From the NCBI RefSeq assembly GCF_053078305.1, contig NZ_CP166879.1: a DNA stretch of 64,000 bases; one strand, written 5' to 3'. Shown one piece after another: positions 31,737 through 50,900 of the stretch. Made by a program: the position numbers and the translations under genes. How positions within the stretch are numbered: the stretch's first letter is position 1; each line of letters begins with the position of its first letter. The notes beneath the pieces are model-generated. The model worked only from the letters and a program-made list of their open reading frames with translations, was not told the DNA's origin and did not search any database.

Positions 31737-31914
31737 TCCTTGCGGCCGGGCGTGGGAAGCGCTTTCTCACCTCCGGGGGAAATACCATAAATTAAGAGAA
31801 AAATCTGCAGTAGCCGTTTTAGAAAATCACCTAAATCGTTTAAAAGAGCGCCCTACCCATAGTGGGTGCTCATCGCCTTGTGTAACTTATTCAGCAACGC
31901 GCGCCCTCGCCGGA

Positions 31915-33108: not shown

Positions 33109-33183
33109 AGTGAAATTTCACAAAGATCAGGATAAAAGCCACCAGCCTATGGTCGGTGGCTTTGCATCAATTCAGGAGAGGTT

Positions 33184-34320
33184 TTATTTCAGTTTGGTCT
33201 GGAAAAATTGTTCGAACTTCGCGAAAGGTATTTTTCCGGCCACGTTATCGTACAGGTCCACGTGATTTGCCCCTGGTACCACCACCAACTCTTTGTCTTT
33301 ACTGCCAACCGCCTTGTAAGCATCTTCAGCAAAATAGCGTGAATGTGCTTTCTCACCGGTCACAATCAGCGTCGGAATGGTTATTTCACTGGCGTAGCTC
33401 AACAGCGGCATATTCATAAATGACAGCGGCATCGTTGCCGTCCACGCCCCGGTAGAGTTAACGGAACGTTCGTGGAAGCCGCGCGGCATGCGATAGTAGT
33501 CAAAGAACTCTTTCAGTACCGGATGAGGATTTGCCGGCAGCGTTTCTGGCAGAATGCGCTCGCCCGCACTGACCTTGCCGTTGCTGTCGACATTAATATC
33601 ATGACCACCGTGAGCGAACGTTCCGCTCTGCGCATCCTTCCAGCGCTGTTCATTCAGATATTGCAGAACAGCACGACGGTCGGCGGTAGAATAACGGTCT
33701 TCGCCATCCCCCACACCATGGCCCATCGCCCGGCTCATGTCATACATCACGCTGGTAGCAACCGCTTTAACGCGGGTATCCATCGCCACGTCGTTCAGCG
33801 CCATGCCACCCCAGCCACAAATACCGAGCAGCCCGATACGGTTGCGATCTACCTCTTTTTGCAGCCCTAAGAAATCCACCGCCGCGCTGAAATCTTCAGT
33901 GTTGATATCCGGTGAGGCGACGTTCCGCGGATAGCCGCCGCTTTCCCCGGTGTAAGAAGGATCGAACGCCAGGGTAACAAACCCTCGTTCCGCCAGCGTC
34001 TGCGCATACAAGCCGCTGGATTGCTCTTTCACCGCGCCAAATGGCCCACTGACCGCAATCGCCGCCAGCTTGCGATCGCCACGGTCTTTAGGCAGGTAAA
34101 GATCGCCCACTAAGGTGATGCCATATCGGTTCGGGAACGATACTTTACGGTGATCGACTTTCTGGCTCTCGGCGAACGTTTTATCCCATTTATCGGTCAT
34201 GGACACAGGGGCATTAGGATTGGTTGAATCAGCATAACTCATTGTCGTGACTCCACTTAATGATGCGAAAAGCAGCATGGCCGGCATCGCGGTTTTTAGC
34301 GTTCGGGTGAAGGCTTTCAT
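33184..34320 (-). CDS. secreted alpha/beta hydrolase, dienelactone-hydrolase-like (paralogue of the 13485..14405 product)
   Basis: ORF 33184..34341; signal peptide; nucleophile elbow LGICGWGG with Cys; C-terminal NHVDLYD. Confidence 0.7.
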   Translation of the reverse strand: MKAFTRTLKTAMPAMLLFASLSGVTTMSYADSTNPNAPVSMTDKWDKTFAESQKVDHRKVSFPNRYGITLVGDLYLPKDRGDRKLAAIAVSGPFGAVKEQSSGLYAQTLAERGFVTLAFDPSYTGESGGYPRNVASPDINTEDFSAAVDFLGLQKEVDRNRIGLLGICGWGGMALNDVAMDTRVKAVATSVMYDMSRAMGHGVGDGEDRYSTADRRAVLQYLNEQRWKDAQSGTFAHGGHDINVDSNGKVSAGERILPETLPANPHPVLKEFFDYYRMPRGFHERSVNSTGAWTATMPLSFMNMPLLSYASEITIPTLIVTGEKAHSRYFAEDAYKAVGSKDKELVVVPGANHVDLYDNVAGKIPFAKFEQFFQTKLK

Positions 34321-34506
34321 AAAAATCCCCATAAAAAACAACAGAGAGATACAGGTTTCCGACGGACAACGCTGCGGTGCTTTACTTTGATGGGGTCATT
34401 ATAGTGAGCAGAATTAGTGCTGATTAGGGGGCGATTAATGCTAAGATTAATACCATATTGTTATAAATTAATGCGAAGATTGCCGGCATGAAGGGGGGAT
34501 GTTTCA

Positions 34507-35391
34507 ATGGCGAAAAGGGAGAACTACAACGAGCTGTACCTGTTTATGCAGGTGGTGCGAGAAGGCAGCTTTACCGCAGCGGCTCAGCGGCTGGGTCTTG
34601 CTCAGTCAGGAGTCAGCCGTTCTGTTCGCGAGCTTGAAGAAAGGCTGGGTGTCCAGCTGCTAGTGCGCACCACGCGTAAACTGTCGCTGACACAAGCAGG
34701 CGAGCAGCTCTACCAGAAGACGGCATCTGGATTTGAAATGTTAGATCTTGGGCTTGCCACACTGGCGCACTATCGAGAGACGCCCTCCGGCACGGTGCGT
34801 ATCAATGCCAGCCAGCACGCGATTGATAAATGCCTGCTGCCAAAGCTGGCGGTATTTAAACAGCGATATCCTGATATCCGGCTTGAACTGATAAATGAGA
34901 GCCGGTTCGTCGATATCATCGAGGAAAGATTCGATGCAGGTGTCCGCCTGGGGCCTGAAGTCGGCCAGGGTATGGTCGCGGTACGCATCACGCCCGATAT
35001 GGAGATGGCAATTGTGGGGACTCCGGAACATTTTCGTCGCTATGGTTTTCCGCAAACTCCGGCGGATTTAAAGGCGCATCCCTGTATCGCCTATCAGTTT
35101 GCCGACGGCAGCGTATACCAGTGGGAACTCAATCAGGATGATAAAAAAATCACTCATCAACCCGAAGGACAATGGGCCCTATCCGACAGCTATATGGAAG
35201 CAGAAGCCGCCCGGCTGGGCCTCGGATTGGCCTATGTTCCTGTTGAACTGGTCGCGGATGATTTAGAACACGGTAAGCTTATCAGGGTGTTGCAGCGTTA
35301 CAGCCTGCGAATGGAGGGATTGTTTCTCTATTACCCTCATCGCAACGTCTCCCCCGCTCTGCGGATGGTCATTGATACATTGAAAATCTGA
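34507..35391 (+). CDS. LysR-family transcriptional regulator
   Basis: 294 aa; HTH FTAAAQRLGLAQSGVSRSVRELEERL; divergent from hydrolase. Confidence 0.8.
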   Translation: MAKRENYNELYLFMQVVREGSFTAAAQRLGLAQSGVSRSVRELEERLGVQLLVRTTRKLSLTQAGEQLYQKTASGFEMLDLGLATLAHYRETPSGTVRINASQHAIDKCLLPKLAVFKQRYPDIRLELINESRFVDIIEERFDAGVRLGPEVGQGMVAVRITPDMEMAIVGTPEHFRRYGFPQTPADLKAHPCIAYQFADGSVYQWELNQDDKKITHQPEGQWALSDSYMEAEAARLGLGLAYVPVELVADDLEHGKLIRVLQRYSLRMEGLFLYYPHRNVSPALRMVIDTLKI

Positions 35392-35629
35392 ACGTTAACA
35401 ACGACCGACTCTTCACGGTGCAATATTGTGTCAGGTAGTCACTCTGCGTTCAATTCCAGGGTCTGCTTTGAGCGAGAAAGAGCAGACTTATCTGTACAAG
35501 GGGACTATCCAGCAATGGAGATCATCCAAAAGAAAAAACCACCTGGCTCCCCTCGACAACCTTAATCCGGGCATTTAGCCTCAATCAACATTTTCATATC
35601 TGTCAGGTTACTTCATTATGAAAACCGAT

Positions 35630-35880
35630 CAATATCGTTGTTTTTGTTGCAACAGTAGAATACGCGTATTTATCCCTCCATTTCTATTAATAACGGCAAT
35701 AAACTGTTCATTTCACTGATATTTAAAATATGCATCCTTTTCAAGCTGTTCAGCGGCGTAAGAAAACGTATTAAATATGAATTCGACGATTTAACCATTT
35801 CTGTCTGATTGGTAATCATCTGTGATTAATGCTGGTCTATTGATTACGCCAGCATTAACCGCTTAGGGATGTATTCTTCC
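35630..35880 (+). repeat. degenerate paralogous copy of the ykgR and ykgO-3'/downstream segments (ykgM and most of ykgO absent)
   Basis: 35633..35745 aligns with 16300..16415 (ykgR region, frame disrupted); 35745..35880 aligns with 17105..17240 (ykgO 3' end and downstream) at roughly 75% identity by eye. Confidence 0.6.
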
Positions 35881-36093
35881 TGATCATATACAGCCCTCGA
35901 AAAAGAGAGAAAATAAAACTGTGTCCAATATTACTCTACCACTCCAGACCGAAGCATCGGTAGAATTAGCAGAACGACTGGTACAATAGATTGGGATAGC
36001 GTCATTTGTCAGGTATTCCATTGCCTGACAAATGACAATTTTGAGTCAATAGACGTGCTTCTTGATCATGTCTTAAAAATTATACCATGAGCC

Positions 36094-36366
36094 TTATGAA
36101 GCATCATTTTTACTGACTGGTGTTAATTTTGCTATCATATAAACTCTGTTCTTAAAAAACGCGCCCAGAATTTTATATGATTTCCCTTGTTTTTCTGCCT
36201 GTAAAGAAATTTCTTTTTCAGTGCTGTCAATGGTTGAACCGACGGCAGTAATCGTTTTGGCGACGCTACTGAATGATAATAAAGACAGTGTAACAACAAC
36301 AATTAAAGAACAGATAGTATTCACGCTAATTCTCCTGACAATTGAGAGGATGAGTTTTATATACAT
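36094..36366 (-). CDS. small secreted DUF1471-like (YjfY/BhsA-type) protein
   Basis: 90 aa; N-terminal hydrophobic signal, then ITAVGSTIDSTEKEISLQAEKQGKSYKILGAF pattern typical of DUF1471 stress proteins. Confidence 0.45.
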   Translation of the reverse strand: MYIKLILSIVRRISVNTICSLIVVVTLSLLSFSSVAKTITAVGSTIDSTEKEISLQAEKQGKSYKILGAFFKNRVYMIAKLTPVSKNDAS

Positions 36367-36536
36367 AGGTATTAAACATGAGTCATATTTACCCCAAGAG
36401 AAAATACTCCTTCTGTAATTAAACCTTCATCTCCTTCGGGGTGAGCAATACATAATACATCTTGCTATGAAAACACAGGGATATATAAATCTTCCTTCTG
36501 ACCTATTTAATAAAACGTGAATGTAAAAGTTATTCT

Positions 36537-36779
36537 TCAGTTTGCAGATGCAGTGGGTCTGATGGTAATTTCGGTTGTATCAACGCTTTCGGGAGATTCA
36601 ATAATATGCCTTACCGCACGGGCAATATCCGCAGGTTGAAGTGCAACAGAACGGTAGGCGTCCATTGCCTTCATGGTTTCCACATGGGTAATGGTTGAAG
36701 CCAGTTCACTTTCGACAACGCCAGGATTTACGCAGGTCACACGGATTTTCGAGCTTTCCTGCCGTAAGCCATCAGAAAT
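36537..36779 (-). pseudogene. C-terminal fragment of a short-chain dehydrogenase/reductase
   Basis: 67-aa ORF matching only the SDR C-terminus (NPGVVESELASTITHVET ... ADIARAVRHIIESPESV); no N-terminal Rossmann part; abuts a second gene fragment. Confidence 0.55.
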
Positions 36780-36780
36780 A

Positions 36781-37216
36781 GCCCGTACTGCAAATCAGGC
36801 AGCGTGAAATGGTCGTTGCCTCTCCCTCCTATCTCGCAGCCAACAGCACACCTGTTCATCCGCGTGAACTTGTGAATCATAAGTGTATCGGCTGGCGTCA
36901 ATCCCCGGATGTTGCGCCTTATCGCTGGCCATTTGAAGAAAACGGGAGAGCTTTCGACCTTGCGATTGAACCACAGATTACGACTAATGATCTGCGTCTG
37001 ATGTTGAGGCTGGCTCTTGCCGGCGGAGGAATAACAATTGCCACTCAGGAAACTTTCAGGCCGTATATTGAAAGCGGTAAGCTTGTATCTCTGCTTGATG
37101 ACTTTCTTCCACAATTTCCGGGCTTCTATCTGTATTTCCCACAGCGTCGCAATATTGCACCAAAGCTCCGCGCCCTGATTGACCACGTCAAGGAATGGCG
37201 GCAGCAATTGGCTTAA
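36781..37216 (+). pseudogene. C-terminal fragment of a LysR-family regulator (substrate-binding domain only)
   Basis: 135-aa ORF with LysR C-terminal motif FPGFYLYFPQRRNIAPKLRALIDHV but no HTH; junction with SDR fragment near 36780. Confidence 0.55.
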
Positions 37217-37389: not shown

Positions 37390-37553
37390 AGCGAGACCAG
37401 TGATTCAAGATGTTCACAGCTGTTTCAGCATACAATAAAAAATATATAAAAATCAACAAAATACACATAAATGCAGTATCAAGATGTTTCGCCTTGTTTC
37501 TGATGATATCATGTTAAATGTGTACCCCACTGTGTACCCAAAAGGCTGAAGAT

Positions 37554-38873
37554 ATGACTTTTACTATTACACAAGACAGACAATTGGCTTCATTGACCGT
37601 TACTAAAGAAGAAAAAGAAATCTTATTTGCTGTAAAATCTAAAGCTGGGGGAGGACTCTTTATACGCGTTCGTTATGGTAGCGACAATAAAAGCTGGATT
37701 TATCGTTATCGAATAGCTCAAAAGCCAGCTAAATTAACACTAGGTAGTTACCCTGCCATGGGATTAGCTCAAGCTCGTAAAGCTCATGCGGATGCAATTG
37801 AATTAGTAAGAAAAGGTATAGATCCTCGTCATATTAGAAAAAATGAAAAACAAAAAAATGAACAAATGATTATTTACTCTGAATTATGGAAAGATTGGAT
37901 AGAATTCAGAAAGACAAGTAAACCAATTAGCACCAGAACCCTTGCAGATTATGAAGGGACTTATCACCGCCACCTTGAAAAAGCATTAGGAAACCTTCGC
38001 ATTGACGAACTTACCAAAAGCGTTATTTTTGAACATCTCAGTAATGTAAGAAAAACCAGTTCTGAAGCAGTTCGTAAAGGATTAATTATTCTAAATATGA
38101 CTCTTGATCATGCCAACTTACAGGGTATGCTTGAGCATAACCCAGCACGACTGCTCAAACCAGCAATGTTTGGTGCATCGATGAATAAACCTCGCGAGCG
38201 ATGGCTTCCTGAGAATGAACTCCGGATGCTATGGAAGGCTTTGGATGATGCTACTGTTGGAGGAGGCTCCATTGCATCTGGTGGCTATGGAATTTCCTCT
38301 AGTGTGGTATTATCTCATTCTGTCGCAAATGCACTCCGTTTGATTATTTTCACAGGAGTGCGCCGCTCTGAAGCGGCACAAATGCGCTGGGATCAAATTA
38401 ATGGAGAGCGTTGGACCATACCAGCCACTAAAAATGGGAAAAGCCATATTGTTACTTTACATCCGTATATGCTTTCTTTAATAAAAACACAACGTGAATT
38501 CACTGAAGGTGCATATGTTTTTGGTTCTACTAGCAAACCTGGCTTTCCCATCACAAATGACGCTCTGACTCGCGCGTTAGAAAGGGTTCGCTCTAAGTAT
38601 CTAGCCGAACTTACTCCATTTTCTCCTCATGATCTGCGTAGAAGTGTTGCGACTGGATGCGCTGAATACCTTGATGCTCCAGAGCGCCTAATAGAGTTAC
38701 TGTTAAATCATGTACCCAAAGACCGTTTAATACGAACATATCAAGTCGGACAACAAGCTGAAAAATTAAAAAATTTATTTATAGAATGGGGGAATTTTAT
38801 TATGAATAACGTCATTACTGTGCAGCAGAATGCTCCGGATAATGTTATTCATATAAAATTTGGGAACAGATGA
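37554..38873 (+). CDS. intF: tyrosine recombinase, P4-like prophage integrase
   Basis: ORF 37518..38873; N-terminal arm-binding/SAM-like region and C-terminal catalytic domain (HDLRRSVATG ... LLNHV... Y); adjacent to tRNA fragment; symbol by analogy to the CP4-6 integrase. Confidence 0.85.
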   Translation: MTFTITQDRQLASLTVTKEEKEILFAVKSKAGGGLFIRVRYGSDNKSWIYRYRIAQKPAKLTLGSYPAMGLAQARKAHADAIELVRKGIDPRHIRKNEKQKNEQMIIYSELWKDWIEFRKTSKPISTRTLADYEGTYHRHLEKALGNLRIDELTKSVIFEHLSNVRKTSSEAVRKGLIILNMTLDHANLQGMLEHNPARLLKPAMFGASMNKPRERWLPENELRMLWKALDDATVGGGSIASGGYGISSSVVLSHSVANALRLIIFTGVRRSEAAQMRWDQINGERWTIPATKNGKSHIVTLHPYMLSLIKTQREFTEGAYVFGSTSKPGFPITNDALTRALERVRSKYLAELTPFSPHDLRRSVATGCAEYLDAPERLIELLLNHVPKDRLIRTYQVGQQAEKLKNLFIEWGNFIMNNVITVQQNAPDNVIHIKFGNR

Positions 38874-38965
38874 TAAAAATACATGCATGGTCTGAGATAC
38901 CCTGTCTACTCGACCATGCAGTATGGTTCAACTAAATCAGTCACAACAAGAAATGATTAGTTTTA

Positions 38966-39814
38966 TTAGATATTGTATGGGATTATTTCTGGATAATACT
39001 TCGCAATGATGTCATTTAGCCGATCAACCAGTTCTGGTTTTCTGAACGTGATATGCGCGGAGCCCTTCTTAAAGTATCTGATGCTGAACATCTCATCTTC
39101 ATAGCAGGCTTTGCCCTGAACGGAGCGGATGTGATCATCCAGCCGAATAATGATATTTTCCCGGCTGTCGGGGATCGGTTTGCCGCTGAACAGGTGCAGC
39201 ATTCTTTCCAGGTCGGCAAGTCGATCTGCCTGTTGCCCGGTGATAAGATGCAATCCCCACCGGTCCCACCTCACCAGATTGTTGACGATAATTTTACTGC
39301 CAAATTTACAGGGGCAATTGGTTTTGTAATCCCAGCTCAGTCCCCTGAAGACGTTGATGACCCCACGCTCAAACACTTCATCCTTATTCTGGTGTAGCTG
39401 CTCAAACGTACTCAGTATATTCTCTTCACTGATTTCCGGAAAATTATCGTACTCCAGTGACCGGTACCATGTATCACGGGCCTGTGCATCCATTAAGGAA
39501 AGCATCCCTGAACGTTGCATCAGGTCACGCCAGATTTCACGGTCAAGGTTGCGGGTGATGGCTTTCATTGCCGTTTCAGGTTTCTCCATCAGCCAGCAAC
39601 CGCAGCGAAAATCCTGTTTCATGGCCCAGTCCGGAGCAGTTTTACCTCCAATACTTTCTGTCATTGCTGATATTTCAGCCAGTTGCCGGATAAGTGTGTC
39701 GATTTGCAGAAGTGTGCTCTTTCGTACAGCCAAAATGTGGCGGATACTGGTTGAGCAGATAACGTCCGTATGCCCGTTGACCACTTCCGGACGGGCGATT
39801 GTGATGCCTGACAT
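38966..39814 (-). CDS. hypothetical island protein (282 aa), function unknown
   Basis: long ORF with coding-like composition between integrase and a hairpin; CGC and CPC motifs; no family recognised. Confidence 0.5.
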   Translation of the reverse strand: MSGITIARPEVVNGHTDVICSTSIRHILAVRKSTLLQIDTLIRQLAEISAMTESIGGKTAPDWAMKQDFRCGCWLMEKPETAMKAITRNLDREIWRDLMQRSGMLSLMDAQARDTWYRSLEYDNFPEISEENILSTFEQLHQNKDEVFERGVINVFRGLSWDYKTNCPCKFGSKIIVNNLVRWDRWGLHLITGQQADRLADLERMLHLFSGKPIPDSRENIIIRLDDHIRSVQGKACYEDEMFSIRYFKKGSAHITFRKPELVDRLNDIIAKYYPEIIPYNI

Positions 39815-39830
39815 AATCGGTTTTCCTTTC

Positions 39831-39869
39831 TGTTTATAAATGAAAACGCCAGCCGTATTCAGGCTGGCG
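39831..39869 (-). terminator. putative intrinsic terminator downstream of the TA/yeeW-like operon
   Basis: hairpin acgccagcc-gtattca-ggctggcgt followed on minus strand by T-rich tract. Confidence 0.4.
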
Positions 39870-40127
39870 TCGGGGGAATGAAGTGTGGTGAGAAAGATAA
39901 TGAGTGAAACTCACCGGTTCAGGTGCTGAAACTGCAGATGGCGCAGAGTTCGGACATCCTGTCGCGCCTGTTCGATACAGGGCAACAGTGCTGCCGAATC
40001 CGTTTTATCCTCATCGTTGTCAAAGATAATTTCCGATTCGCAGTCAATATTGTCCTGCAGCCACGCAATCAGAATATCCAGCGCCGTTTCTGTGGTTAAT
40101 AATTTCATCCAGTGTCTTTTGTCCTGA

Positions 40128-40616
40128 TTACCAGTCGAAAGTGGGGAACCCCGGCAGACATTCTGCGCTGGCGTCCAGATGAATGAGACTGACGCCATAA
40201 CGCCGGGTGAGTGTGACAACCAGACGACGGAACGTTTTTGACAGGCCCAGGCGCTTAAGCCGCAGAACCGGGTATGACCACGCATCGGTACGTAACAGAT
40301 AGCCGCTGCCTGTAAAATGAATCCATTCTGATTCACCAACGTCACTGGTCTGGTGTGACAGCGAGTACAGCCAGGCGTTGTCCGTTTCCGTGATATGTGC
40401 GGTACTGCAGCGTATGCCGGTAAGGGCAGCAGAGGGGGGTATGCTGTCTGTTGAGGTCCGGTCAGATTCATCAACAACACGAAGGGAGTAGCCATTATCG
40501 CAGACCACGTTAATCAGTTCGGCAAGCTCAACACCATCGACGTCAACGACAATTCGCCCCATGTTCAGTGCCTGTACGTTAACGCTGTCAGCTTCCAGCG
40601 TCAGGGCCAGTTTCAT
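40128..40616 (-). CDS. YeeW-like protein, translationally coupled downstream of the CbtA toxin gene
   Basis: 162-aa ORF starting immediately after toxin stop; identification by position and partial recollection of YeeW sequence. Confidence 0.5.
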
Positions 40617-40990
40617 CGTTTTGCCTCCGGATGCTTGCCCCGGGTAATGTTATTTACCATTCTGTAATTGTTCCGGGTCATCAGGCCGGTCGCCCTGCGA
40701 GCCCGGAGAATATCAATGCTGTTGATTAACTGCGACGGGGCTCCTGCGCTGAATCCCGGCTGGTCGGTACGTACCAGCGCGTATTTTTCAACGAGAAATT
40801 TCACCGCGTCACACAGTGAAATCCCTGCCTCAATATGCTGCTCAATCACACGTTCATCAGCGAACGGTGTGTCATTCAGCGTAAGGCCATAGTGCTGGTC
40901 CAGCAGTCGGGTGAGCAGTGTCTGCCAGATTTCAACAGGAGATGGGCGTGAACTGGCCGACTGCCCGGGTAATACAGGTAATGTTTTCAT
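40613..40990 (-). CDS. cbtA: CbtA/YeeV-family type IV toxin (cytoskeleton-binding toxin)
   Basis: ORF 40613..41131; from internal Met the product [63 protein letters not shown]... matches the CbtA family throughout. Confidence 0.85.
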
Positions 40991-41079
40991 ACTGAAGATT
41001 TTCCTGATATGCAGAGATAAAAAATGGGAAAGTGGCGTGGTGAAAACACCAGGCCGTAGCAGAAGGCTATTCTGGAGGG

Positions 41080-41448
41080 TTAATTTTTCATTTCGGGCGT
41101 CGGATAAACAGCCAGATAAACGTAACCACAACTGCCGAGGGTATCGGCTTTGCAGGTCAGCCCTTTTGCATACAGCGTGACGGTATGCTGATGGCGGGGA
41201 TTCAGTTCACCGCTGGTGAGCATGAGTTCCAGTTGTTTCATCAGCAGCGGAAAGGCCTGGTCCAGGTGGTACGCATCCGCGTCGCTGAACCGGCCTCTGA
41301 TACCGGCGCGGTCGGCAAGGTAATGCAACCGGTTACCCTCCTGCACCAGACGGGCGCCGAAACAGGGCGTCGCGGTGCAGGGTAGCCCCCACCAGGGGCG
41401 GTCGTGATTGTCGTCGGGATGCGTTGTCCCGGGGAGTGTGTCTGACAC
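41080..41448 (-). CDS. cbeA: CbeA/YeeU-family type IV antitoxin
   Basis: ORF 41080..41568; GTG start at 41448 with GAGGA RBS gives (M)[51 protein letters not shown]..., a CbeA-family sequence. Confidence 0.85.
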
Positions 41449-41497
41449 GATAAAATCCTCACAGAAAATCGGTGAATGATAGTTTAACGATGACGGG

Positions 41498-42145
41498 TCA
41501 GCCGGCGCGCAGACCGGCTTCGGTGAAGGTGTATTTGTTGATGAGAAGGGTCTCATCAACAGCGGCATCTGAGGTCAGCCAGTCATACTCGTTTTCCAGT
41601 TGACGGTACAACCAGAAGGCCAGGTCGCGCAGGGCTTCGCTGACTGCGGCTTCCGCATCGGTTGTCATTACCTGACCAGTCGGACTGTTCCGGGTGACGG
41701 TGATATCCATGCTGTACGGATGGCAGTAGCGTCCCCGGAGATTGATTTCAGCCTGAAGCTGCCAGAAGTTACGTTTCTGCACCACCTGCAGGGCATCCGC
41801 GATACGATGAAGCTCACGGTCCTGCGGGGCATATTCCCGGAGCCTCCTGGCTGTTGCTGACTGCCAGTGCCAGCGTCCTTCAAAACAGGCTCCGTCCCCC
41901 TGGCTGCAGAATCCGCTGAACCAGATGCACGGCTCTTCCATAAACCTGCCACTGCTGAGCCGGAAAACGCGCTGGCGGAGGTCAATTCCGAAAATGCCAC
42001 AGACCGCCCTGAAGTCCTCGTACACGTTTTCATACCAGTTGCTGTCAGAATGGTGCACACGGTACCAGTCGCGGGCTTTTTCCCGTGCAGAAGGGCAGGA
42101 AAGTTCATCCAGCGTATACACTGTGGTGGTGATAATGCTGCTCAT
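41498..42145 (-). CDS. hypothetical 215-aa protein inserted between yeeT-like and cbeA (Trp/Cys-rich)
   Basis: long ORF in the module's transcription direction; not part of the canonical yeeS-yeeT-cbeA-cbtA arrangement; several alternative-frame ORFs overlap so the frame is uncertain. Confidence 0.35.
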   Translation of the reverse strand: MSSIITTTVYTLDELSCPSAREKARDWYRVHHSDSNWYENVYEDFRAVCGIFGIDLRQRVFRLSSGRFMEEPCIWFSGFCSQGDGACFEGRWHWQSATARRLREYAPQDRELHRIADALQVVQKRNFWQLQAEINLRGRYCHPYSMDITVTRNSPTGQVMTTDAEAAVSEALRDLAFWLYRQLENEYDWLTSDAAVDETLLINKYTFTEAGLRAG

Positions 42146-42163
42146 CAGAATCCCCTTTCTGAC

Positions 42164-42385
42164 TCAGTTCAGAGTAACGCTCATCAACCGGACATACGGG
42201 CCAAAACTGTCCTTACGGCGTTCAGCAAACACGGCCAGCACACCGGGAATATCCTGCACTTCACGACCGGTATACGTTTCAGCACTGCCGTGCCAGCGGT
42301 ACTTACCGGTACAGAACGGAAAAAGACGGGATGCAGGATGCTGTTGGTGAATACGCATGGCTTCACCACGGGTGATAATTTTCAT
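42164..42385 (-). CDS. yeeT: YeeT-like DUF987 protein (73 aa)
   Basis: MKIITRGEAMRIHQQHP...FPFCTGKYRWHG...GPYVRLMSVTLN matches the YeeT/YkfH family. Confidence 0.8.
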   Translation of the reverse strand: MKIITRGEAMRIHQQHPASRLFPFCTGKYRWHGSAETYTGREVQDIPGVLAVFAERRKDSFGPYVRLMSVTLN

Positions 42386-42453
42386 GATGGGATACCTCTG
42401 AAGACAGAAGATAAAAGTGAAAACAAGTGTGATGTGGTTGTGATGGTGACGGG

Positions 42454-42930
42454 TTAAAGCAGACCGTGTTCAGCAAAGGAGAAAACCTGGCTGCCACCGA
42501 TTATCAGATGGTCCGGCACCCGGATATCCACCAGGGCCAGTGCCTGTACCAGACGTTCCGTAATAAGGCGGTCAGCCTTACTGGGTGTGACTTCACCTGA
42601 CGGGTGATTGTGCGCCAGCACCACGGCAGCGGCATTGTGGTACAGGGCACGTTTAATCACTTCCCGGGGATGGACTTCCGTGCGGTTGATGGTGCCGGTG
42701 AAGAGGGTTTCACCGGCAATCAGCTGATTCTGATTGTTCAGATACAGCACCCGGAACTCTTCCCGCTCCAGTCCCGCCATGTTCAGAATCAGCCACTCCC
42801 GTGCCGCACGGGTGGAGGTGAAGGCCACGCCGGGTTCATGAAGATGGCGGTCCAGGGTTTTCAGGGCCCGCAGAATGAGACTGCGCTCGCCGGGCGTCAT
42901 CTCTCCGGGCAGAAAGGAAAGCTGTTGCAT
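42454..42930 (-). CDS. yeeS: RadC-like JAB-domain protein (YeeS/YkfG family)
   Basis: ORF 42454..42945; JAMM-like motif HNHPSGEVTPSKADRLITERL; conserved island position. Confidence 0.85.
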   Translation of the reverse strand: MQQLSFLPGEMTPGERSLILRALKTLDRHLHEPGVAFTSTRAAREWLILNMAGLEREEFRVLYLNNQNQLIAGETLFTGTINRTEVHPREVIKRALYHNAAAVVLAHNHPSGEVTPSKADRLITERLVQALALVDIRVPDHLIIGGSQVFSFAEHGLL

Positions 42931-42945
42931 TGTGCTTCTCTCCAT

Positions 42946-43452
42946 TCAGTCGATGATGCGCATAATGGCGCTGCATTCCGGATGCTGCAGGGCGTAATCC
43001 CGCAGCCGGTAATAATGGACCGTCATGGCATAACACTCCGTACGACAGGCATGATGACTGTACGTCATCAGACAGGCAGCAATGCCGGCAGCTTCCGGAC
43101 TCATTTCAGCGCGGTTACCGTTCATGGCATTGAACAGCACCCATGTTTCGTCATCATCATCCGGTTCGGGCGCCATAAATGCGCCACCGTTGTTCAGGGT
43201 GTACAGACTCCAGATACCACCGCAGTAGTCTTCACACAGACGGTCCATCCAGCCGAAGATACGGGGCTCCAGGGTCACCCACTGTGGAATGAGGCCAAAG
43301 TGCTGCGGCCAGAAGCTGATGCGCTGTTCATCAGGGACGGGAGTGGCAACCAGTTGAGACTGGTTATTCCCTGATGCAGCGGTCACGGAAACAGAAGGTG
43401 TGGTGGAATTATGCGAAGAGGTTGTCATGAGATTATTCCTTATAAAAAGCAA
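42946..43452 (-). CDS. antirestriction protein (KlcA/ArdB-like, YfjX/YafX family)
   Basis: 168 aa, acidic, Trp-rich; conserved position upstream of radC-like gene. Confidence 0.75.
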   Translation of the reverse strand: MLFIRNNLMTTSSHNSTTPSVSVTAASGNNQSQLVATPVPDEQRISFWPQHFGLIPQWVTLEPRIFGWMDRLCEDYCGGIWSLYTLNNGGAFMAPEPDDDDETWVLFNAMNGNRAEMSPEAAGIAACLMTYSHHACRTECYAMTVHYYRLRDYALQHPECSAIMRIID

Positions 43453-43516
43453 ATGAATGGAAGAAGTCGCGGGGCAGGGACGGACATGTCAGAACTGCGC
43501 TTTCAGGGAAAAGGCA

Positions 43517-44335
43517 TCAGCGCATACTCTCCAGCAGTGTTTCTGCCATCACCCACAACGCCCGGTTGAGCTTAATGTCGGTGTCGATGCTGTGAATGGC
43601 ACGGGTATGGATACGTTTCCCTCTGGCACTGCGACCGGAAATCCCGCCTTTCAGCATATTTTCCTGGATGGTCTGATAAGTACTCCACAGGTCCTTACCG
43701 TAATCCTCCCGGCGTCGTGGTGTCAGAATGTCGGCGGTGGTGACGGGCTGATGTTCGTCACCATAACGGTAAGTCAGCGCCGCCTGTGCCAGCGCCTGAC
43801 GTGCCGGTGGCGGTAAGAGCAGCGACTGCATGGCATCACGCTTTTCCTCAATCCGGTCAAAAACGCCCACCACTTCGTAAGCCCCTTCAATAACTTTCTC
43901 CACCACGTCTCCCCGGTGCGGAACACGCACCTCTCCCAGAGACTGACCGCAGACGCACCCGTTCTGACAAACGAATCTGAAGTAACCCGGCAGCATCTGG
44001 TAGCTGGAGGTACCGTCATGGGAATTGAGCAGGATGATTTCCGGGACATGCTGTCCGTTTATCTCTCCGGCCCGCCGCAGACGCAGCATGTGTTTTGTGT
44101 ATCCCCGGCGGCCCGGGTCACGTACGCGGGTCTGGCAGGCGAAGAATGGCTGAAAACCTTCCCGCTGCAGGCTTTCCAGTACGGTGATGGTGGGGATCCA
44201 GGTATAGTTCTCGCTTCTGGATGTGTGCTTATCTTCCCCGAATACGCTGGGGACGACTTGCATCAGTTCTTCGCGAGTTAAGGGGCGGTCACGGCGTATC
44301 TGGTTCGCATAACCAAAACGACTGGCTAATCGCAT
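43517..44335 (-). CDS. DUF932-family protein (YfjQ/YafZ-like)
   Basis: 272 aa; conserved island position and family-typical sequence (LLNSHDGTSSYQMLPGYFRFVCQNG). Confidence 0.75.
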   Translation of the reverse strand: MRLASRFGYANQIRRDRPLTREELMQVVPSVFGEDKHTSRSENYTWIPTITVLESLQREGFQPFFACQTRVRDPGRRGYTKHMLRLRRAGEINGQHVPEIILLNSHDGTSSYQMLPGYFRFVCQNGCVCGQSLGEVRVPHRGDVVEKVIEGAYEVVGVFDRIEEKRDAMQSLLLPPPARQALAQAALTYRYGDEHQPVTTADILTPRRREDYGKDLWSTYQTIQENMLKGGISGRSARGKRIHTRAIHSIDTDIKLNRALWVMAETLLESMR

Positions 44336-44746
44336 AATTTGCTCCTTATCGGTGGTTAAGATTTGCTGGTGTAATAAATGAAAAAGCCACGTCTCCCGGA
44401 GAAGACGCGGCCTGATGGGTGAAATGAATGACGTTTATTGTCTGAGAAGACCGTCACTGGCGAGCCGCGTATTAAGCACCTTTCCGGCATCGGGTTCAGA
44501 ATTCCGGCTGCGCCAGCGTCGCTGACCTTCCGCGTTGCGGATAACCCGACGGAAATGCATTCCCGGGTCATTCTGGATAAACACATTGCGGTAAGCGGTT
44601 ATGACAGCAACCGCCTGCCCGTATGAGAAAGATCCTTCAGCCAGGACATACTCTGTGTAACCCGGCATATCTGTTTTCTCCTGATAAATAAAAAGCCTCT
44701 GCCACGCGTTGTGACAGAGGCTGAAGCATGAAACTGACTTCAGGGA

Positions 44747-45202
44747 TCAGTTAACGTTTTTTCCGGAAACGGTAATCAGCAGTGGATGGTAGTCCTGGGG
44801 ATCGAAAACCGATAACGGCAGACTGACACGATGGCCGTTACTTTCTTCAGTTGCTTTAATGATTTCGGTTGTGGCGATATTTTCCACGCACTCCGTTTCC
44901 AGAAATGCGTCTGTGGTTCGCGTGGCATTACTGTCACCAAAAGCTTCCGTTTCCATTTTTCTGGTCACCAGCGTCTGACCATATTTGTCTTTGAGTTGCA
45001 GAGTGATGGTGAGGGGGCCAAATCCTTCACCGTTTCCGCCATTATCCAGCCGGAACTGGTAAGCACAAATATTTCCCGGGAGCCATATCGTATCTGTATT
45101 GCGTATACTGATGTAACGATGATCCTGTGCCCGGAGTGGGGCAGACCACGTTAACCCCAGAATGAAGGCGGTAATCATGCAGGTTTTGAACAGGTGAATC
45201 AT
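44747..45202 (-). CDS. small secreted/lipoprotein-like island protein
   Basis: 151 aa with N-terminal signal peptide MIHLFKTCMITAFILGLTWSAPLRA. Confidence 0.5.
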   Translation of the reverse strand: MIHLFKTCMITAFILGLTWSAPLRAQDHRYISIRNTDTIWLPGNICAYQFRLDNGGNGEGFGPLTITLQLKDKYGQTLVTRKMETEAFGDSNATRTTDAFLETECVENIATTEIIKATEESNGHRVSLPLSVFDPQDYHPLLITVSGKNVN

Positions 45203-45277
45203 GGTATTTACCTCTCTGAGTCATGACGATGACACTGACAAATCAGGTGATAAAACGTAAAAGGCGCAGAATAGCCG

Positions 45278-47800
45278 TTATGCCGGTAACTCCGGAGGTA
45301 ATGCTTCTTCCAGTCGGTTAACCATATTGCCGAGATGGGATGCATCATATTCCATGACGGGGCGTTGCCTGATGATACTGACCACCAGTGGTTTGATTAA
45401 CATATTGGTCGCGGCCCGTTGTTGTATACCGGCGGCGAAAATGATCTCCAGAGCATTCTGATCGATAACACGGGCCAGATTCTCGTTCAGATTTTCAATC
45501 TCATGTCCGGTCAGCAGGAAACTGCCGGCAAGCCATGTCACCTGCTCCTGAATCATTGCCAGAATTTTGACGCGATCTTCTTCAACCAGCGCTCCGGCAA
45601 TTTTTCCTGATACAGCGGAGGCAATCATTCCCCCCAGAACACCGCCAACCACACGCCCTGTCAGTGCACCAAATGGTCCCAGTGGACTGAACAGTATCCC
45701 GCCCGCCACTGACCCGACAGCTCCACCTGCAACACCGGAAGATGCCACGGCAAGATTCCTGATGAACTGCGTACCGGAGATCCGTCCCCGCAACATTTTG
45801 ATCATGTCAGGGCCGGTTGTGACAGCTACCAGTGCCAGAGATGTCACCAGCGTACCCTTCATCACTTTGTTCAGGGCACTGATATTTCCTGCACCGGTCC
45901 CCTTCTGAAGAGCCAGTCGGACAGTCGGGCTGGCAGTCGAAAAATCAATGTGCTTCAGCATACCCTGAACAACACTGAGCCGGTGGAGTTGCTGGGTTGT
46001 GACGTAGACAGCCAGTGTGCGGGTGAAGGTTTTTCCTGCCTGGACAGCAGCTGTCTGCAGGGCAGCATCGCGATCGCCGGTGCTGAGCCAGAAGACCGAT
46101 GCCGTCAGGGCAAAACTGATCCCTCCGGCCGCCAGACTGACAACCGAACCCTCGGCAATATCATAAGTGACCGATTCGATGGTCCCGAACCGGGTGATAT
46201 TACGGGCCTGAGTATAAGTCAGATGTCCCCGACGAATCAGCCGGGACGCTTCTGCGGGATCGGTTACACCGGGTACTTTACCTTCGCGGATCTTATTCCT
46301 CATGGTTTCAACAGCGCCGGCATACTGATCACGGGGGACTTCCAGTTGCATGGGGCCATTATTTCCCATGTAACGATACTGTCCGTTTTGTCCGTCGAAT
46401 GCCGCACCGACGCTACGGGCTGCAGTTGAACAATATTTCGTCTGGATTTCTGTTCCGCTGACCAGTCTGTCTGCTCCATTTCTGGCATTATTATCACCGA
46501 GGATCCGTGCGTTTTTCAGACGGACTCTGTCGACAATATGGTTTCCCCGTTCAGCGGCAAACCCATGTCCCTGCCCTCCGGAAGCAAACATTTTCTCATT
46601 TGTACTCCAGGTTTCCGGCAGTTTCATGAGAATCAGACCATTCGCCGTTGCATCGGAAATAAAACCGGTGTAAGAACGTTCATAAATGTCCTGACACAGT
46701 GTTTCTGTTTCGCGACAAAGAGAGGAGCAGTACCATTCCGGATCCGGCTTATGATTTTCCGGGGCATGATGTACTTCTGTCAGCCCGCAGGAGGCACAGA
46801 TACGAAGCTCATCCACGTGATGGAATGATAAAAAACGGCGACCTTCTGAAAAGGGATACCAGTCACCGCCGTCCAGGCAACGATCGAGAAAATCGTCATT
46901 CGCTTCCGGTGATAAATTCAGGCGGTTCCGGAAGAGCGTTTTCAGTTCATCAGGTGTGAATGACAGGTTCTCTTTCAACTGTTCGTTAAACCCTGCCATG
47001 TTTCTTTCATACCAGGCATTGTTCAGTAACCAGTTTCCGTCTGCCAGTTCAAATTCCCTCAGCTCTCCCCGGGAAATCCGTTGAGAAATGAGCGTCAGCC
47101 AGATGCGCTCCGTCAGTGAGTCAGGAAGGCTGTAATCGTTTTGCAAACTGGTCAGCCACGATTTACTGTTGAGCACCGGTTGTTCTTCCAGTGTCTGGCT
47201 GATGGCACAGGTCAGTTTTTTCAGCGCCTGGATCTGGCTGGCCGCCCATAGCAGCGTCACTAATGCAGCCAGCCAGTACAACAACCCGCCCCACCACATC
47301 AGTGACGGTGAAATATCGTACTGTAACGCGATCAATGGTGCGCATGCAGAACACGCCATAAGGAAAAAGGCAGTATAAAAACAGCAGTAATACCCGTTAA
47401 TTTCCTTGCTGATATCTTCTGGTGTGATCCCGTTCTGCTGAATGTTTTTGATCTGCAGGGGAACAGCCAGCAGACCACCGGCGAGAGCAGTGGTCAGAAT
47501 AAATTTCACAGAGTCAAAGGTGTGAGCCTCCAGCGCGATATGTTTACCATCAAGTCCCCACATGAAGCTGATGATCATTCCGGCAATCGTCAGAAATACG
47601 CCTGCCAGCCAGCGAATATGGAACAACCGGGTTATGCGTTCGGTGATATAGCCAGCCAGTAAGGCCGGGCCGAACAGACACAGCAATATGAGCCCTGCCA
47701 GCGCAGAAGCCGTGCTGATTAATGCTCTGAACAAAAGGCGAAGAATGGCAAATCCTGCGATCAGCAGGATCAGCGCGCCGACTATCTGTAACATAGTCAC
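45278..47800 (-). CDS. YeeR-like inner membrane protein (840 aa) with N-terminal TM bundle, central Cys4 zinc-ribbon-like motif and C-terminal Gly-zipper segment
   Basis: about 6 N-terminal hydrophobic helices; CASCGL...(18)...CSSLC; Gly-rich GVAGGAVGSVAGGILF...GGVLGGMIASAVSG; position immediately downstream of Ag43 as for yeeR. Confidence 0.55.
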   Translation of the reverse strand: MTMLQIVGALILLIAGFAILRLLFRALISTASALAGLILLCLFGPALLAGYITERITRLFHIRWLAGVFLTIAGMIISFMWGLDGKHIALEAHTFDSVKFILTTALAGGLLAVPLQIKNIQQNGITPEDISKEINGYYCCFYTAFFLMACSACAPLIALQYDISPSLMWWGGLLYWLAALVTLLWAASQIQALKKLTCAISQTLEEQPVLNSKSWLTSLQNDYSLPDSLTERIWLTLISQRISRGELREFELADGNWLLNNAWYERNMAGFNEQLKENLSFTPDELKTLFRNRLNLSPEANDDFLDRCLDGGDWYPFSEGRRFLSFHHVDELRICASCGLTEVHHAPENHKPDPEWYCSSLCRETETLCQDIYERSYTGFISDATANGLILMKLPETWSTNEKMFASGGQGHGFAAERGNHIVDRVRLKNARILGDNNARNGADRLVSGTEIQTKYCSTAARSVGAAFDGQNGQYRYMGNNGPMQLEVPRDQYAGAVETMRNKIREGKVPGVTDPAEASRLIRRGHLTYTQARNITRFGTIESVTYDIAEGSVVSLAAGGISFALTASVFWLSTGDRDAALQTAAVQAGKTFTRTLAVYVTTQQLHRLSVVQGMLKHIDFSTASPTVRLALQKGTGAGNISALNKVMKGTLVTSLALVAVTTGPDMIKMLRGRISGTQFIRNLAVASSGVAGGAVGSVAGGILFSPLGPFGALTGRVVGGVLGGMIASAVSGKIAGALVEEDRVKILAMIQEQVTWLAGSFLLTGHEIENLNENLARVIDQNALEIIFAAGIQQRAATNMLIKPLVVSIIRQRPVMEYDASHLGNMVNRLEEALPPELPA

Positions 47801-47914: not shown

Positions 47915-50900
47915 TCAGAAGGTCACATTCAGTGTGGCCTGACCGTTATACCCTTCAGCGCTGCTGCCGCTGACGCTGTGGGCATAACCGGCCTGAACGC
48001 CCAGGGTGATATTTTCCCGGACACGGGCTTCCAGTCCGGCCTGCAGGTCCAGTGACGTGCCATTCCGGGACGGTGAGAACGTCATGTTACTGCCGGCTGC
48101 AGCTGTACCCATGCTCATGTCCCCCCGGGAGCTGAAGGTGCGGATAACAGAAGGTTGTACCCACCAGTTCACAGGCAGTTCACTCACACCGTGTTTTGTA
48201 CTGTCGCGCAGGGTGTCACGGGATGAGGTGCCTTCACCAAAGGTCATATCGTTGTGGCTGCCCAGACGGAAACCGGCACGCACATGTTGTGCACTGCCAT
48301 ACCCGAACTTCACATAACCGGCGTTATCCTGGCCGTCATCCAGGGAGAGTCCCTGCCAGGTGTACTGCAGTTGCGGCTCCAGCATCAGATTGTCAGTGAT
48401 ACTGAAGGGCAGACCGGTTTCCAGCGAACCCAGCCAGCCCCACCCCCGGGCGCGGAAGTCGTTATTGTCCGTTGACGCTTTCATGCTGTGGCGGGTTCCC
48501 AGGGCCACAATGTCAGCCCACAGGCCGGAGGATGTATGTGTCAGATTCAGGTATCCGCCAAGGCTGCCGGCATCATCCCGGACCGTGCCGGCACGGGAGG
48601 CGTCATCATCCTTAACATCAACGGAAGAATGGCCTGCAGCACCATATATCCCTGCGGTCACAGACATACCGGCAACCTCTGTTCTCAGCAGGTCACCCTC
48701 CAGGCGGACGAAGCCATAGCTGCCGCTGCTTTCCGGCGTGGCCCCACGGGCAATACCGCCGTTGTTATCGTGACCGAGATGGCCGCCCTGAATGCTGAGA
48801 CGGACGCTGTTATTTTCACCGTTTACACCGGTCTGATGGCTGCGTGAGCCTGCCAGAATCCGGTCATAGTCCATTGCCTGTGTCAGCATGGAGGCATACA
48901 GGGGGACTTCTGCACGATAAGCATTTTCACTGCGCAGATACCAGCTCTCATCACTGTCCCGGTTGAGGGAGTAGTTAAAGGCACCGGCCTGCAGCCTGTT
49001 CCCCTGGACAAAGGCCCCTTCCTCCGTGGTGGCACCGTTAATGGCTTCCACCACCTGAATACCCTTACCGCTGGTCGCCAGCCCCGACGCACTGTTGCCA
49101 GCGTTCACCAGGTTCAGGATGGTTTTTCCGGTTGCCCTGCCACCGTCAATGACCAGTCTGTCAGCATTGTTCTGTGCCATATCCGGGCGTACACGCAGGC
49201 TGATGGTGCCATTCTGTCCGTTCAGGTTTTTCACTTTCAGGGTTGCCGGTACGAACTTCCCTGTGCGGGTGGAGGTGAAATGAATCTGTCCGGCATGGCT
49301 GAGGTCATCCACCACCGACTGCACCGTGGCGTTATCGGGGATATTCCAGGTGGCACCGGAGGCGAGAGTGACATTCGTGGGGTCAATGGCACCGTTCAGC
49401 ACAGTGCTGCCGGTCAGCTTCAGGGCTGTACCGCGCTGAGCAATGACATCCGTGGTGACGGTACTGTCGTTCAGCGTCAGCGTGCCTTCATTCAGGTTGA
49501 CGGCTTTCTGGGTGAGTGTGGTGTTGCTGACAGTGAGTGTGCCACTTCCTGATTTTTCCACGCTGCCGTTACCGGTGAGAGAGCCTCCCTGCAGGAGTGC
49601 ATCGCCTTCACGGATGGTCAGGGTATCGTTGTTCACCGTCTTCCCGGAAAGGGTAAGTATGGCGCCGTTATTCAGCGTGGTGGTGCCCGCCAGTGTGCCG
49701 CCCCTGGCGGTGAACAGTCCGCCATTTACCGTGGTATCCGTGGCCGTATCACCGGCGTTCAGCGTGAATGAACTGCCTTTTTCCAGCATCAGGGCATCCG
49801 CCTGACCGCCTCCGATACTGAATGCCTTTCCGTCGCTCCGTGTACCACTGACAGCGGCACCGGAATCGGCCAGCAGTACACCGCCATTCCCCATGGATAC
49901 GGTGGTGGCGGCACCACCGTTGCGGACATCCAGCGTTCCGCCATCATCCACACGGGTATTAGTGGCTGTGTGTCCGCTCAGCACATCCAGACGTCCGCCA
50001 TTTTCCAGTACGACATTATCAGCTTTACCCTCCACAACAGAGAATGCTCCCTGGCGGTTTATGCCGGTAACGGTTGCAGCCGTACTGGTAACCAGTGCGC
50101 CGCCCTGCTTCAGGGTGACATTCGTGGCTGTACCACCGGCGTTCACCTGCAGTTTGCCTTTCTGGTTAACGGTGGTGAAATCCGCCAGACCACCTTCCTT
50201 GACAATCTGCCAGCCGTCACTGTTTACAACCGTGTCAGAGGCTGTGCCTCCGTTGTGCACATACTGGTAACCGCCATTCAGTGTGGTATCCAGCGCATGC
50301 CCGTGTACCGTCTGGTCGCCGCCGGCATAAACCACAGTGGTATTTGCTGTTCCTTCAGCAGCCACAATCTGACGACCATTTTTATTGATAGTGGTACGTA
50401 CGGCATTTCCGCGAACAAACTGCCCGGTATCACCATTTTCTGCATCTGGTCCCCCTTCCGCGCCGGTATTCACAACCGTGTCGGTTGCCATTGCGCCGGA
50501 TTTGACGGCCTGCCAGCCCTTCTCATTAATGACGGTACCCGTTGCAATCCCGCCTTCATGTACCCACTGCTCACCGCCGTTCAGAGTGGTGTTCACTGCC
50601 TGCCCCTGAAGGCTCTGTCCGCCTCCGGCACTGATAACCGTGTCTGAAACACTTCCGCCGGGATTCACTCTCTGAAGACCACCACTGGTGACAGTCGTTT
50701 TGTTGGCTGTACCGCCATCCTGTACCCATTGACCGCCGGTATTGGCCTCATTGTCCGGCCCGTACTCCAGCCCGGTACTGATGGTCATTCCGTTGGTCAT
50801 ACCGAAGACAATCTGGTTGTCATGATTTGTCAGTGTTCCGCCGCTCACGGTTTCTCCCGCCTGTACAACCGTGTCAGCAGCCAGTGCCGGGACTGATGTG

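Follow-up and report, generated by a model that had tools for sequence, protein, structure and literature searches.

Within the window (the whole 64,000-nt stretch of DNA analysed here), a CP4-type island block of genes on the minus strand surrounds an ORF of 215 aa at positions 41498–42145. The block begins with a DUF932 gene (43517–44335; PF06067, E 8.7e-51), followed by a KlcA/ArdB-type antirestriction gene (42946–43428; PF03230, E 1.8e-37), a radC gene encoding a JAB-domain protein (42454–42930; PF04002, E 5.5e-45) and a yeeT-like DUF987 gene (42164–42385; PF06174, E 9.7e-40), which is the 5′ neighbour of the ORF. The 3′ neighbour is cbeA, coding for a type IV antitoxin of the YeeU family (41080–41448; PF06154, E 2.2e-53), and beyond it lie a cbtA-family toxin gene (40613–40990; PF06755, E 4.6e-55) and genes assigned by Pfam match to DUF5983 (40128–40616), DUF957 (39911–40108) and DUF4942 (38966–39814), all on the minus strand. 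The antirestriction gene, the DUF987 gene and every gene from cbeA to DUF4942 are also given in RefSeq. Beside the DUF4942 gene, a tyrosine integrase gene (37518–38873) runs on the plus strand. Specifically, the gap between the DUF987 stop codon and the ORF is 18 nt, and that between the ORF and the start of cbeA is 49 nt; cbeA uses a GTG start codon and has its GAGGA Shine-Dalgarno (SD) sequence in the spacer that separates it from the ORF. A consensus scan placed terminator-like hairpins 5′ of the block (44384–44413, minus strand) and past the DUF957 gene (39845–39871, minus strand) and found neither a promoter-like nor a strong terminator-like site on the minus strand between them, so the genes from DUF932 to DUF957 plausibly form one transcription unit. 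On these signals, the gene of 215 codons is probably co-transcribed with the DUF932, antirestriction, RadC, DUF987, CbeA and CbtA genes. An Rfam search of positions 38500–45500 gave no credible RNA.

Judged by comparison of sequences, the ORF is a genuine and intact protein gene, already catalogued rather than new. An earlier sequence-only reading of this DNA had reported an ORF of 215 aa between the yeeT-like gene and cbeA, and it is present exactly as described, with an ATG start codon, 215 codons and an SD-like AAAGGGG (42152–42158, minus strand) placed 6 nt 5′ of the ATG, in the context ...CAGAAAGGGGATTCTG that runs up to the start codon. In RefSeq, a CDS with identical coordinates encodes WP_000094921.1 (‘hypothetical protein’) in the complete genome of an STEC strain whose DNA matches ours at 100% identity across the 851-nt query spanning the ORF. 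The exact protein is seen on 237 public contigs, and the DNA of the ORF occurs 2,827 times, nearly always in full length, in 1,963 of the 5,426 complete genomes of E. coli. In the 215-codon frame, dN/dS lies between 0.15 and 0.27 (Nei-Gojobori; four E. coli alleles and their comparison with Salmonella), and third codon positions hold most of the differences, both among the E. coli alleles and against Salmonella. Additionally, the G+C content at each codon position is like that of the adjacent genes. The protein was fairly called Trp/Cys-rich, because Trp makes up 3.7% and Cys 2.8% of its residues, both above the levels of approximately 1.5% and 1.1% that are usual for the E. coli proteome. The many overlapping alternative frames that had been pointed out do exist, as ORFs of 146 aa on the minus strand and of 196, 141 and 86 aa on the plus strand, but they turn out to be uninformative. 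Their extents vary by allele whereas the frame of 214 or 215 codons is constant, and the alternative open stretch has 157 codons as against 137 ± 28 in codon-shuffled versions of the gene. Because codon-shuffled genes give similar open stretches, the alternative frames are best seen as a by-product of the 57% G+C. Taken together, the segment is a real additional gene within the yeeT–cbeA–cbtA operon, a point on which that reading is supported, and its conservation extends to related islands.

Homology places the 215-aa protein in the DUF8835 family, from whose other members nothing sets it apart. RefSeq gives the name DUF8835 to proteins that are 90–94% identical to it, and phrog_5162 matches its residues 3–211 (E 3.7e-34). 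An exhaustive HMMER search returned 3,269 representative clusters (50% identity) at E ≤ 1e-3, and a separate search returned 3,276 homologues. The clusters are typically 200–225 aa long and align end to end, and homologues of 214–215 aa are 57–100% identical, with E-values down to 1e-145. In an alignment of 66 sequences, the conserved core consists of GFxSQGDGAxFEG together with E14, D44, D109, Q123, H142, W178 and N203. The 215-aa protein carries SGFCSQGDGACFEG and H142, and the motif columns are at least 90% conserved among the 66 sequences. The residues E14, D44, Q82, D84, D109, Q123, H142 and N203 are invariant and polar, which would fit a small enzyme as well as an inhibitor that binds tightly. 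AF2, run on the same 66-sequence alignment, gave a mean pLDDT of 96.3 and a pTM of 0.89 and predicts a mixed α/β fold, in which an antiparallel sheet is packed by long helices. The protein has a mass of approximately 25 kDa, a pI of 5.4, a net charge of about −6 and no hydrophobic segment, as a soluble protein has.

Beyond its own family, the protein has few points of reference. The 215-aa sequence gave no match in Pfam (a 2025 copy that lacks a DUF8835 model), NCBIfam or PADLOC, Pfam returned noise only for the 66 members, a search of the PDB by single sequence and by profile found no relative, and for the AlphaFold model no solved structural relative was found. The fold matches in BFVD are exclusively uncharacterised phage proteins. 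A literature search found no mention of DUF8835, of the WP accessions or of phrog_5162, and the family goes unmentioned in the ICE and leading-region papers. Longer members of the family (P0132, P0180 and others) have extensions in which Pfam finds no domain, and the long member P0001 is an internal duplication. Functional names that some records carry were considered and set aside. The record of Acinetobacter phage CP14 gives the name ‘RNA polymerase binding protein’, which was not accepted since the annotation of that record is unreliable, with neighbouring genes of 50–70 aa labelled ‘DNA polymerase’ and ‘clamp loader’. The name ‘antitoxin’ given by PGAP has no homology behind it, as neither Pfam nor NCBIfam finds an antitoxin domain in DUF8835, and we found no experiment that would support it. 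In the literature, the PGAP phrase denotes RelB-type antitoxins, to which Pfam finds no similarity in the 215-aa protein. Antitoxins of the RelB/StbD type are small, adjoin a cognate toxin and have an RHH or Phd/YefM-like domain, whereas DUF8835 has 215 aa, a predicted mixed α/β fold and no such domain.

The segment had been described as extra, inserted into a module in which yeeT is normally followed directly by cbeA. Comparison with K-12 indicates the opposite polarity. In CP4-44 of K-12, the spacer between yeeT and cbeA measures 73 nt and keeps the SD sequence of the gene together with its first 23 nt, ATGAGCAGAATTATCGCCACTAC (MAFFT and local alignments). These 23 nt encode MSRIIAT(T), in agreement with the N-terminus of the family, M-x-x-I-I-x-T-T-V-Y. 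The alignment with CP4-44 stops at position 42123 and picks up at 41472, 26 nt past the stop codon of the ORF. The segment that is absent from CP4-44 therefore spans 41473–42122 on the minus strand (approximately 650 bp), and about 14 unalignable nucleotides stand in its place. Because the spacer holds the SD sequence and the 5′ 23 nt of the gene, CP4-44 of K-12 is a deletion derivative, and by this alignment it has lost the gene via an internal deletion of approximately 650 bp. The junction of the K-12 type occurs in 3,529 of the 5,426 genomes (at least 80% coverage) as against 1,963 with the gene, which makes the deletion allele the commonest form in E. coli and explains why yeeT seems to stand ‘normally’ directly before cbeA. 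In the comparison with the CP4 modules of K-12 that the sequence-only reading had put forward, the CP4-44 spacer carries a remnant of the gene, while the modules of CP4-6 (ykfH–yafW) and CP4-57 (ypjJ–yfjZ), with spacers of 18 and 37 nt, carry none. The antitoxins of CP4-6 and CP4-57 are shorter, at 105 aa.

These observations bear directly on the less favourable views of the ORF. One view takes it as a decayed or frame-shifted remnant, or as a chance frame in G+C-rich DNA, from which no functional protein would be made. The several long overlapping frames and the lack of a match in Pfam, NCBIfam and PADLOC could be cited for it, but the overlapping frames are unconserved and predicted by composition, thousands of clusters contain full-length homologues of approximately 214 aa, dN/dS is about 0.2 and the AF2 model reaches a pLDDT of 96. 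We regard this view as refuted by conservation and purifying selection and give it a negligible probability. The gene is intact and its homologues are full-length, so it is not the frame-shifted remnant of a known gene, and the ‘decayed insertion’ that had been suggested does not agree with homologues that keep their full length at 60% identity in Alphaproteobacteria. Another view holds that a cassette or a fragment of a mobile element was recently inserted, as foreign DNA, into a contiguous yeeT–cbeA junction in the lineage of this strain. The three modules of K-12, in which the antitoxin gene follows DUF987 after 73, 37 and 18 nt, would fit such an event, but the 5′ end of the gene is present at the supposedly empty site of CP4-44 and encodes an N-terminus typical of the family. 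No inverted or direct repeats border the ORF within 41300–42300, and the hallmarks of an insertion sequence or cassette (terminal inverted repeats, target-site duplication) are absent at its borders. The codon-position G+C resembles that of the neighbours, Citrobacter and Salmonella carry the gene at the same position, and the order RadC, small gene, DUF8835 returns in Alphaproteobacteria. Since convergent identity over 23 nt is implausible, the remnant in K-12 is enough to refute a recent insertion, which we consider very unlikely.

Outside E. coli, a genome scan yielded 80 loci in other species, nearly all of them alphaproteobacterial, with 57–62% identity. A gene for CbeA, CbtA or DUF987 lies nearby in a single one of these 80 loci, that of Salmonella diarizonae. 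The DUF8835 gene is immediately preceded by a gene for a 139-aa protein with no assigned family in 73 of the 80 loci, and the overlap of these two genes amounts to 8 nt in pP97_c. A RadC-like gene lies just upstream in 43 loci, as it does in pP97_c and pP73C, and a gene for a ParB_N protein of approximately 710 aa lies upstream in 54. On the downstream side, a strawberry-notch-type methylase-helicase of 1,460 aa (AAA_34 and Helicase_C_4) is encoded in 72 loci, a DUF7146-Toprim protein in 52 and a DUF2493 protein in 42. The E. coli order of RadC, small gene and DUF8835 mirrors the alphaproteobacterial order of RadC, 139-aa gene and DUF8835.

In pP73C, a conjugative plasmid of the MOBP and MPF_T types, the 5′ part of the co-oriented series reads RepC, ParB, further genes, SSB, a DUF932-like gene, RadC, further genes, the 139-aa gene and DUF8835, and the series continues with MbcA, RES, strawberry notch, Toprim, DUF2493, further genes, mobC and the relaxase gene. 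Here, DUF8835 lies 19 kb upstream of mobC and the relaxase gene, in the same orientation. The same block, from ParB through DUF2493, is found in pP97_c. In Tistrella, DUF8835 is located 2 kb upstream of nikA and the relaxase gene and co-oriented with them, with ParB_N, DUF736 and DUF2958 farther upstream and the coupling protein beyond these. As read from the position of the relaxase genes, DUF8835 in Tistrella and pP73C appears to be placed like a leading-region gene, on the upstream side of the relaxase and directed at it. The family is encoded in 112 plasmid records, 41 of which are typed as conjugative, and in 59 phage records, including the giant Caulobacter phages of the phiCbK-like type. 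In the latter, DUF8835 is situated inside the terminal repeats of 18 kb, among small unknown genes. The DUF8835 proteins of jumbo phages have approximately 30–40% identity.

The enterobacterial DUF8835 proteins form one clade in a neighbour-joining tree. In E. coli, Citrobacter and one Salmonella locus, the gene order is DUF987-DUF8835-CbeA-CbtA. In Klebsiella and Salmonella, it is DUF987-CbeA(-CbeA)-DUF8835-CbtA, and in Salmonella the start of the DUF8835 gene overlaps cbeA by 4 nt. DUF8835 thus shares with CbtA/CbeA (YeeV/YeeU, with the paralogues YkfI/YafW and YpjF/YfjZ) the operon, the type of island and the orientation, and it stands beside cbeA in the enterobacterial copies examined, with short spacers (the 18 and 49 nt of the present locus). 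On the other hand, DUF8835 is unrelated to either component, with no homology of the 215-aa protein or of the 66 family members to CbeA (PF06154) or CbtA (PF06755) in Pfam. The family mostly occurs without CbtA/CbeA, a contact with CbeA is not confidently predicted, and the K-12 systems work without DUF8835 (PMC5371832). Natural DUF8835-CbeA fusions of 342–343 aa were first weighed as Rosetta-stone evidence and later given less weight. Their origin is a TGA-to-TTA change in an allele with a spacer 34 bp shorter, an allele present in 473 genomes, where the stop codon is normally kept and the SD sequence and GTG of cbeA are retained. Because the fusion comes down to a mutated stop codon in an allele that is common, with the SD sequence and start of cbeA intact, it is weak evidence. 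An AF2 model of a chimera that joins DUF8835 to CbeA by a 30-residue GS linker, built from a shallow pairing of nine rows and read without PAE, gave a pTM of 0.61 compared with 0.89 for DUF8835 alone, the pLDDT of DUF8835 staying at approximately 96 and that of the CbeA part ranging from 66 to 81. These values match two independently placed domains and so provide no confident interface between DUF8835 and CbeA.

Whether the gene serves the toxin–antitoxin (TA) pair at its side can be weighed on this basis. The sequence-only reading had suggested that the gene might be a third component of the type IV TA system or modulate it. In its strongest form, this proposal holds that the enterobacterial DUF8835 was recruited as a co-antitoxin, sensor or regulator that tunes CbtA/CbeA, which we think unlikely; with no better likelihood, the studies on K-12 would then have used a crippled, two-gene version. 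In favour of recruitment, cbeA adjoins every enterobacterial copy examined, in both the DUF8835-CbeA-CbtA order and the CbeA-DUF8835-CbtA order with its 4-nt overlap in Salmonella, natural in-frame fusions with CbeA exist, and a roseobacter plasmid has another TA pair, MbcA–RES, directly 3′ of DUF8835. Additionally, YafW neutralised YkfI only partially, with no help from the upstream genes yafX, ykfG and ykfH (PMC5371832), which leaves room for a missing factor. However, 79 of the 80 loci from other species are without CbeA, CbtA and DUF987, and MbcA/RES is found in one of the 80. The K-12 proteins CbtA, YkfI and YpjF show toxicity, and their own antitoxins neutralise them without a DUF8835 gene (Wen et al. 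2017, PMC5371832). Obligate co-occurrence of DUF8835 with the toxin and antitoxin genes is not observed, since the TA modules of E. coli are mostly without DUF8835, the deletion allele outnumbers the gene (3,529 against 1,963 genomes) and the modules of CP4-6 and CP4-57 never offered space for it. The fusion derives, as a rare form, from a common allele, the chimera leaves the DUF8835 domain unchanged, weak as its shallow paired alignment makes that result, and DUF8835 shows homology neither to CbeA nor to any antitoxin family. A role as third component of the TA system in general finds no support in these data, and a modulator role confined to the Enterobacteria is, in our estimate, improbable.

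The explanation that we favour, with moderate confidence, is that DUF8835 is an ancestral gene of the CP4-type block and that the family acts as a stand-alone factor for the entry and establishment of mobile elements, with no need of CbtA/CbeA. We propose that DUF8835 was an original member of the DUF932-antirestriction-RadC-DUF987-DUF8835-CbeA-CbtA block of CP4-type islands, from which many E. coli, including K-12 with its CP4-44, have lost it by the internal deletion. The protein would be made early, upon entry of the element into a new cell, and would act on a conserved target in the host or in a DNA transaction, helping the incoming DNA to survive and become established through either counter-defence or modulation of the host. 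It would do so without requiring CbtA or CbeA.

The genomic company of the family is consistent with this proposal. Leading regions are enriched in genes for SSBs, methyltransferases, anti-restriction proteins and TA systems, and they are also rich in uncharacterised families, some of which are common to phages (Samuel et al. 2024, PMC11541004). Known leading-region functions likewise accompany DUF8835, namely SSB, anti-restriction, methyltransferase, ParB-like and TA genes. DUF8835 keeps company similar to that of the establishment and anti-defence genes of leading regions (ArdA, KlcA/ArdB, PsiB, SSB and orphan methyltransferases; PMC11541004) and, as these do, is common to plasmids, ICEs and phages. 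Given the company and geometry of a conjugative entry region, the CP4-type block can be read as related to such a region or descended from it. DUF8835 differs from these genes in that it matches no known anti-defence protein: no characterised one was found by sequence or fold, nor any in the defence library of PADLOC. It is also unlike the DNA mimics of the ArdA/Ocr type, with a pI of 5.4 and a net charge of −6 that make it only mildly acidic.

With regard to its activity, the invariant acidic, His and Gln residues and the identity of approximately 60% between alphaproteobacterial and gammaproteobacterial members suggest an enzyme, or a protein that binds a conserved target, and not an inhibitor that evolves quickly. 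Certain observations count against an entry role or against a purely independent function. The identity of 57–62% between Alphaproteobacteria and Gammaproteobacteria would be an uncommonly high value in an arms-race inhibitor, the E. coli copy sits in a non-conjugative island, and the enterobacterial copies are tied to cbeA and cbtA. We know of no conjugative transfer of CP4-type islands. A combined reading, according to which DUF8835 is a new entry-phase effector that neutralises conserved host immunity or DNA processing and is additionally wired into the enterobacterial CbtA/CbeA operon, seems possible to us but on the doubtful side. If it were true, the textbook type IV TA locus of K-12 would be a deletion-crippled unit of three genes.

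The gene is no new kind of element, since RefSeq already lists an identical protein and a DUF number is assigned to the family. As a large, constrained and foldable family spread across plasmids, ICEs, islands and phages, DUF8835 is a reasonable candidate for establishment or counter-defence. CP4-44 of K-12, on which the paradigm of type IV CbtA/CbeA is based, is a deletion derivative without a conserved member of the operon, and about one third of complete E. coli genomes keep the member that it is missing.

In 73 of the 80 DUF8835 loci from other species, the gene directly upstream of DUF8835 in Alphaproteobacteria encodes a protein of about 139 amino acids, which belongs to no Pfam family (comparison loci L093:13589-14008, L108:19589-20008 and L034:7571-8008). 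This gene and the DUF8835 gene overlap by 8 nt in the roseobacter plasmids pP97_c and pP73C. The protein is likely a functional partner of DUF8835, and E. coli has no counterpart of it unless DUF987 is one. Additionally, gene sets for ubiquitin-like conjugation, comprising ThiF/E1, E2/UBC, multiubiquitin and JAB or DUF6527, lie near the ParB/DUF8835 regions of a Tistrella element (L003:1-1742) and of pP73C (L108:4523-8620), the latter set being broken up by IS256. The DUF8835 homologue of Acinetobacter phage vB_AbaM_CP14 (L096:3992-4591) is labelled "RNA polymerase binding protein"; the annotation of this record looks unreliable, because genes of 50-70 aa around the homologue bear implausible names such as DNA polymerase and clamp loader.

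Within the Enterobacteria, the position of the DUF8835 gene relative to the antitoxin and toxin genes varies. In Salmonella and Klebsiella, it is placed between cbeA and cbtA (L104:2787-4148, L098:5610-6996 and L045:7287-9080). Specifically, Salmonella carries two tandem, overlapping CbeA paralogues upstream of DUF8835, the second of which shares 4 nt with the start of the DUF8835 gene. In one E. coli module, with a DUF8835 that shares 62% identity with the window protein, an extra 76-aa gene lies between cbeA and cbtA (L100:7053-7283), and its product has no Pfam match; the antitoxin–toxin pair is therefore interrupted by unrelated genes in at least two different arrangements. DUF8835 and CbeA are also found naturally joined in frame as a 342-343 aa product (L006:4001-5032, also L007; proteins P0003-P0014, P0018, P0021, P0024 and P0025), owing to a TGA>TTA change together with a spacer shortened by 34 bp. 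The short-spacer allele is present in 473 complete genomes, mostly with the stop codon kept, as exemplified by L095:635-1663.

The K-12 deletion remnant between yeeT and cbeA leaves a 16-codon ORF (MSRIIATTGPFLADFL, then a stop codon) downstream of the original Shine-Dalgarno site (L088:2553-2603, corresponding to K-12 MG1655 2,077,052-2,077,102). The cbeA GTG starts 10 nt after the end of this ORF, which the K-12 record leaves unannotated. In the window, the DUF8835-cbeA spacer holds the sole sigma-70-like match of region 39800-45300, at 41442-41469 (+). Lying on the opposite strand, it would run antisense to the DUF8835 gene at its 3' end; it fits the consensus at 9 of 12 positions, and shuffled controls of the region contain more such matches, so it is probably due to chance.

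A segment of about 5.1 kb (window 31791-36877), located upstream of a LysR-type remnant and the island integrase and containing ORFs of 397, 385 and 294 aa, is missing from the closest complete genome, STEC17-190. Conversely, the Ag43 gene of STEC17-190 carries an IS66 copy that is absent from the window, where the junction falls near 50829-50852.
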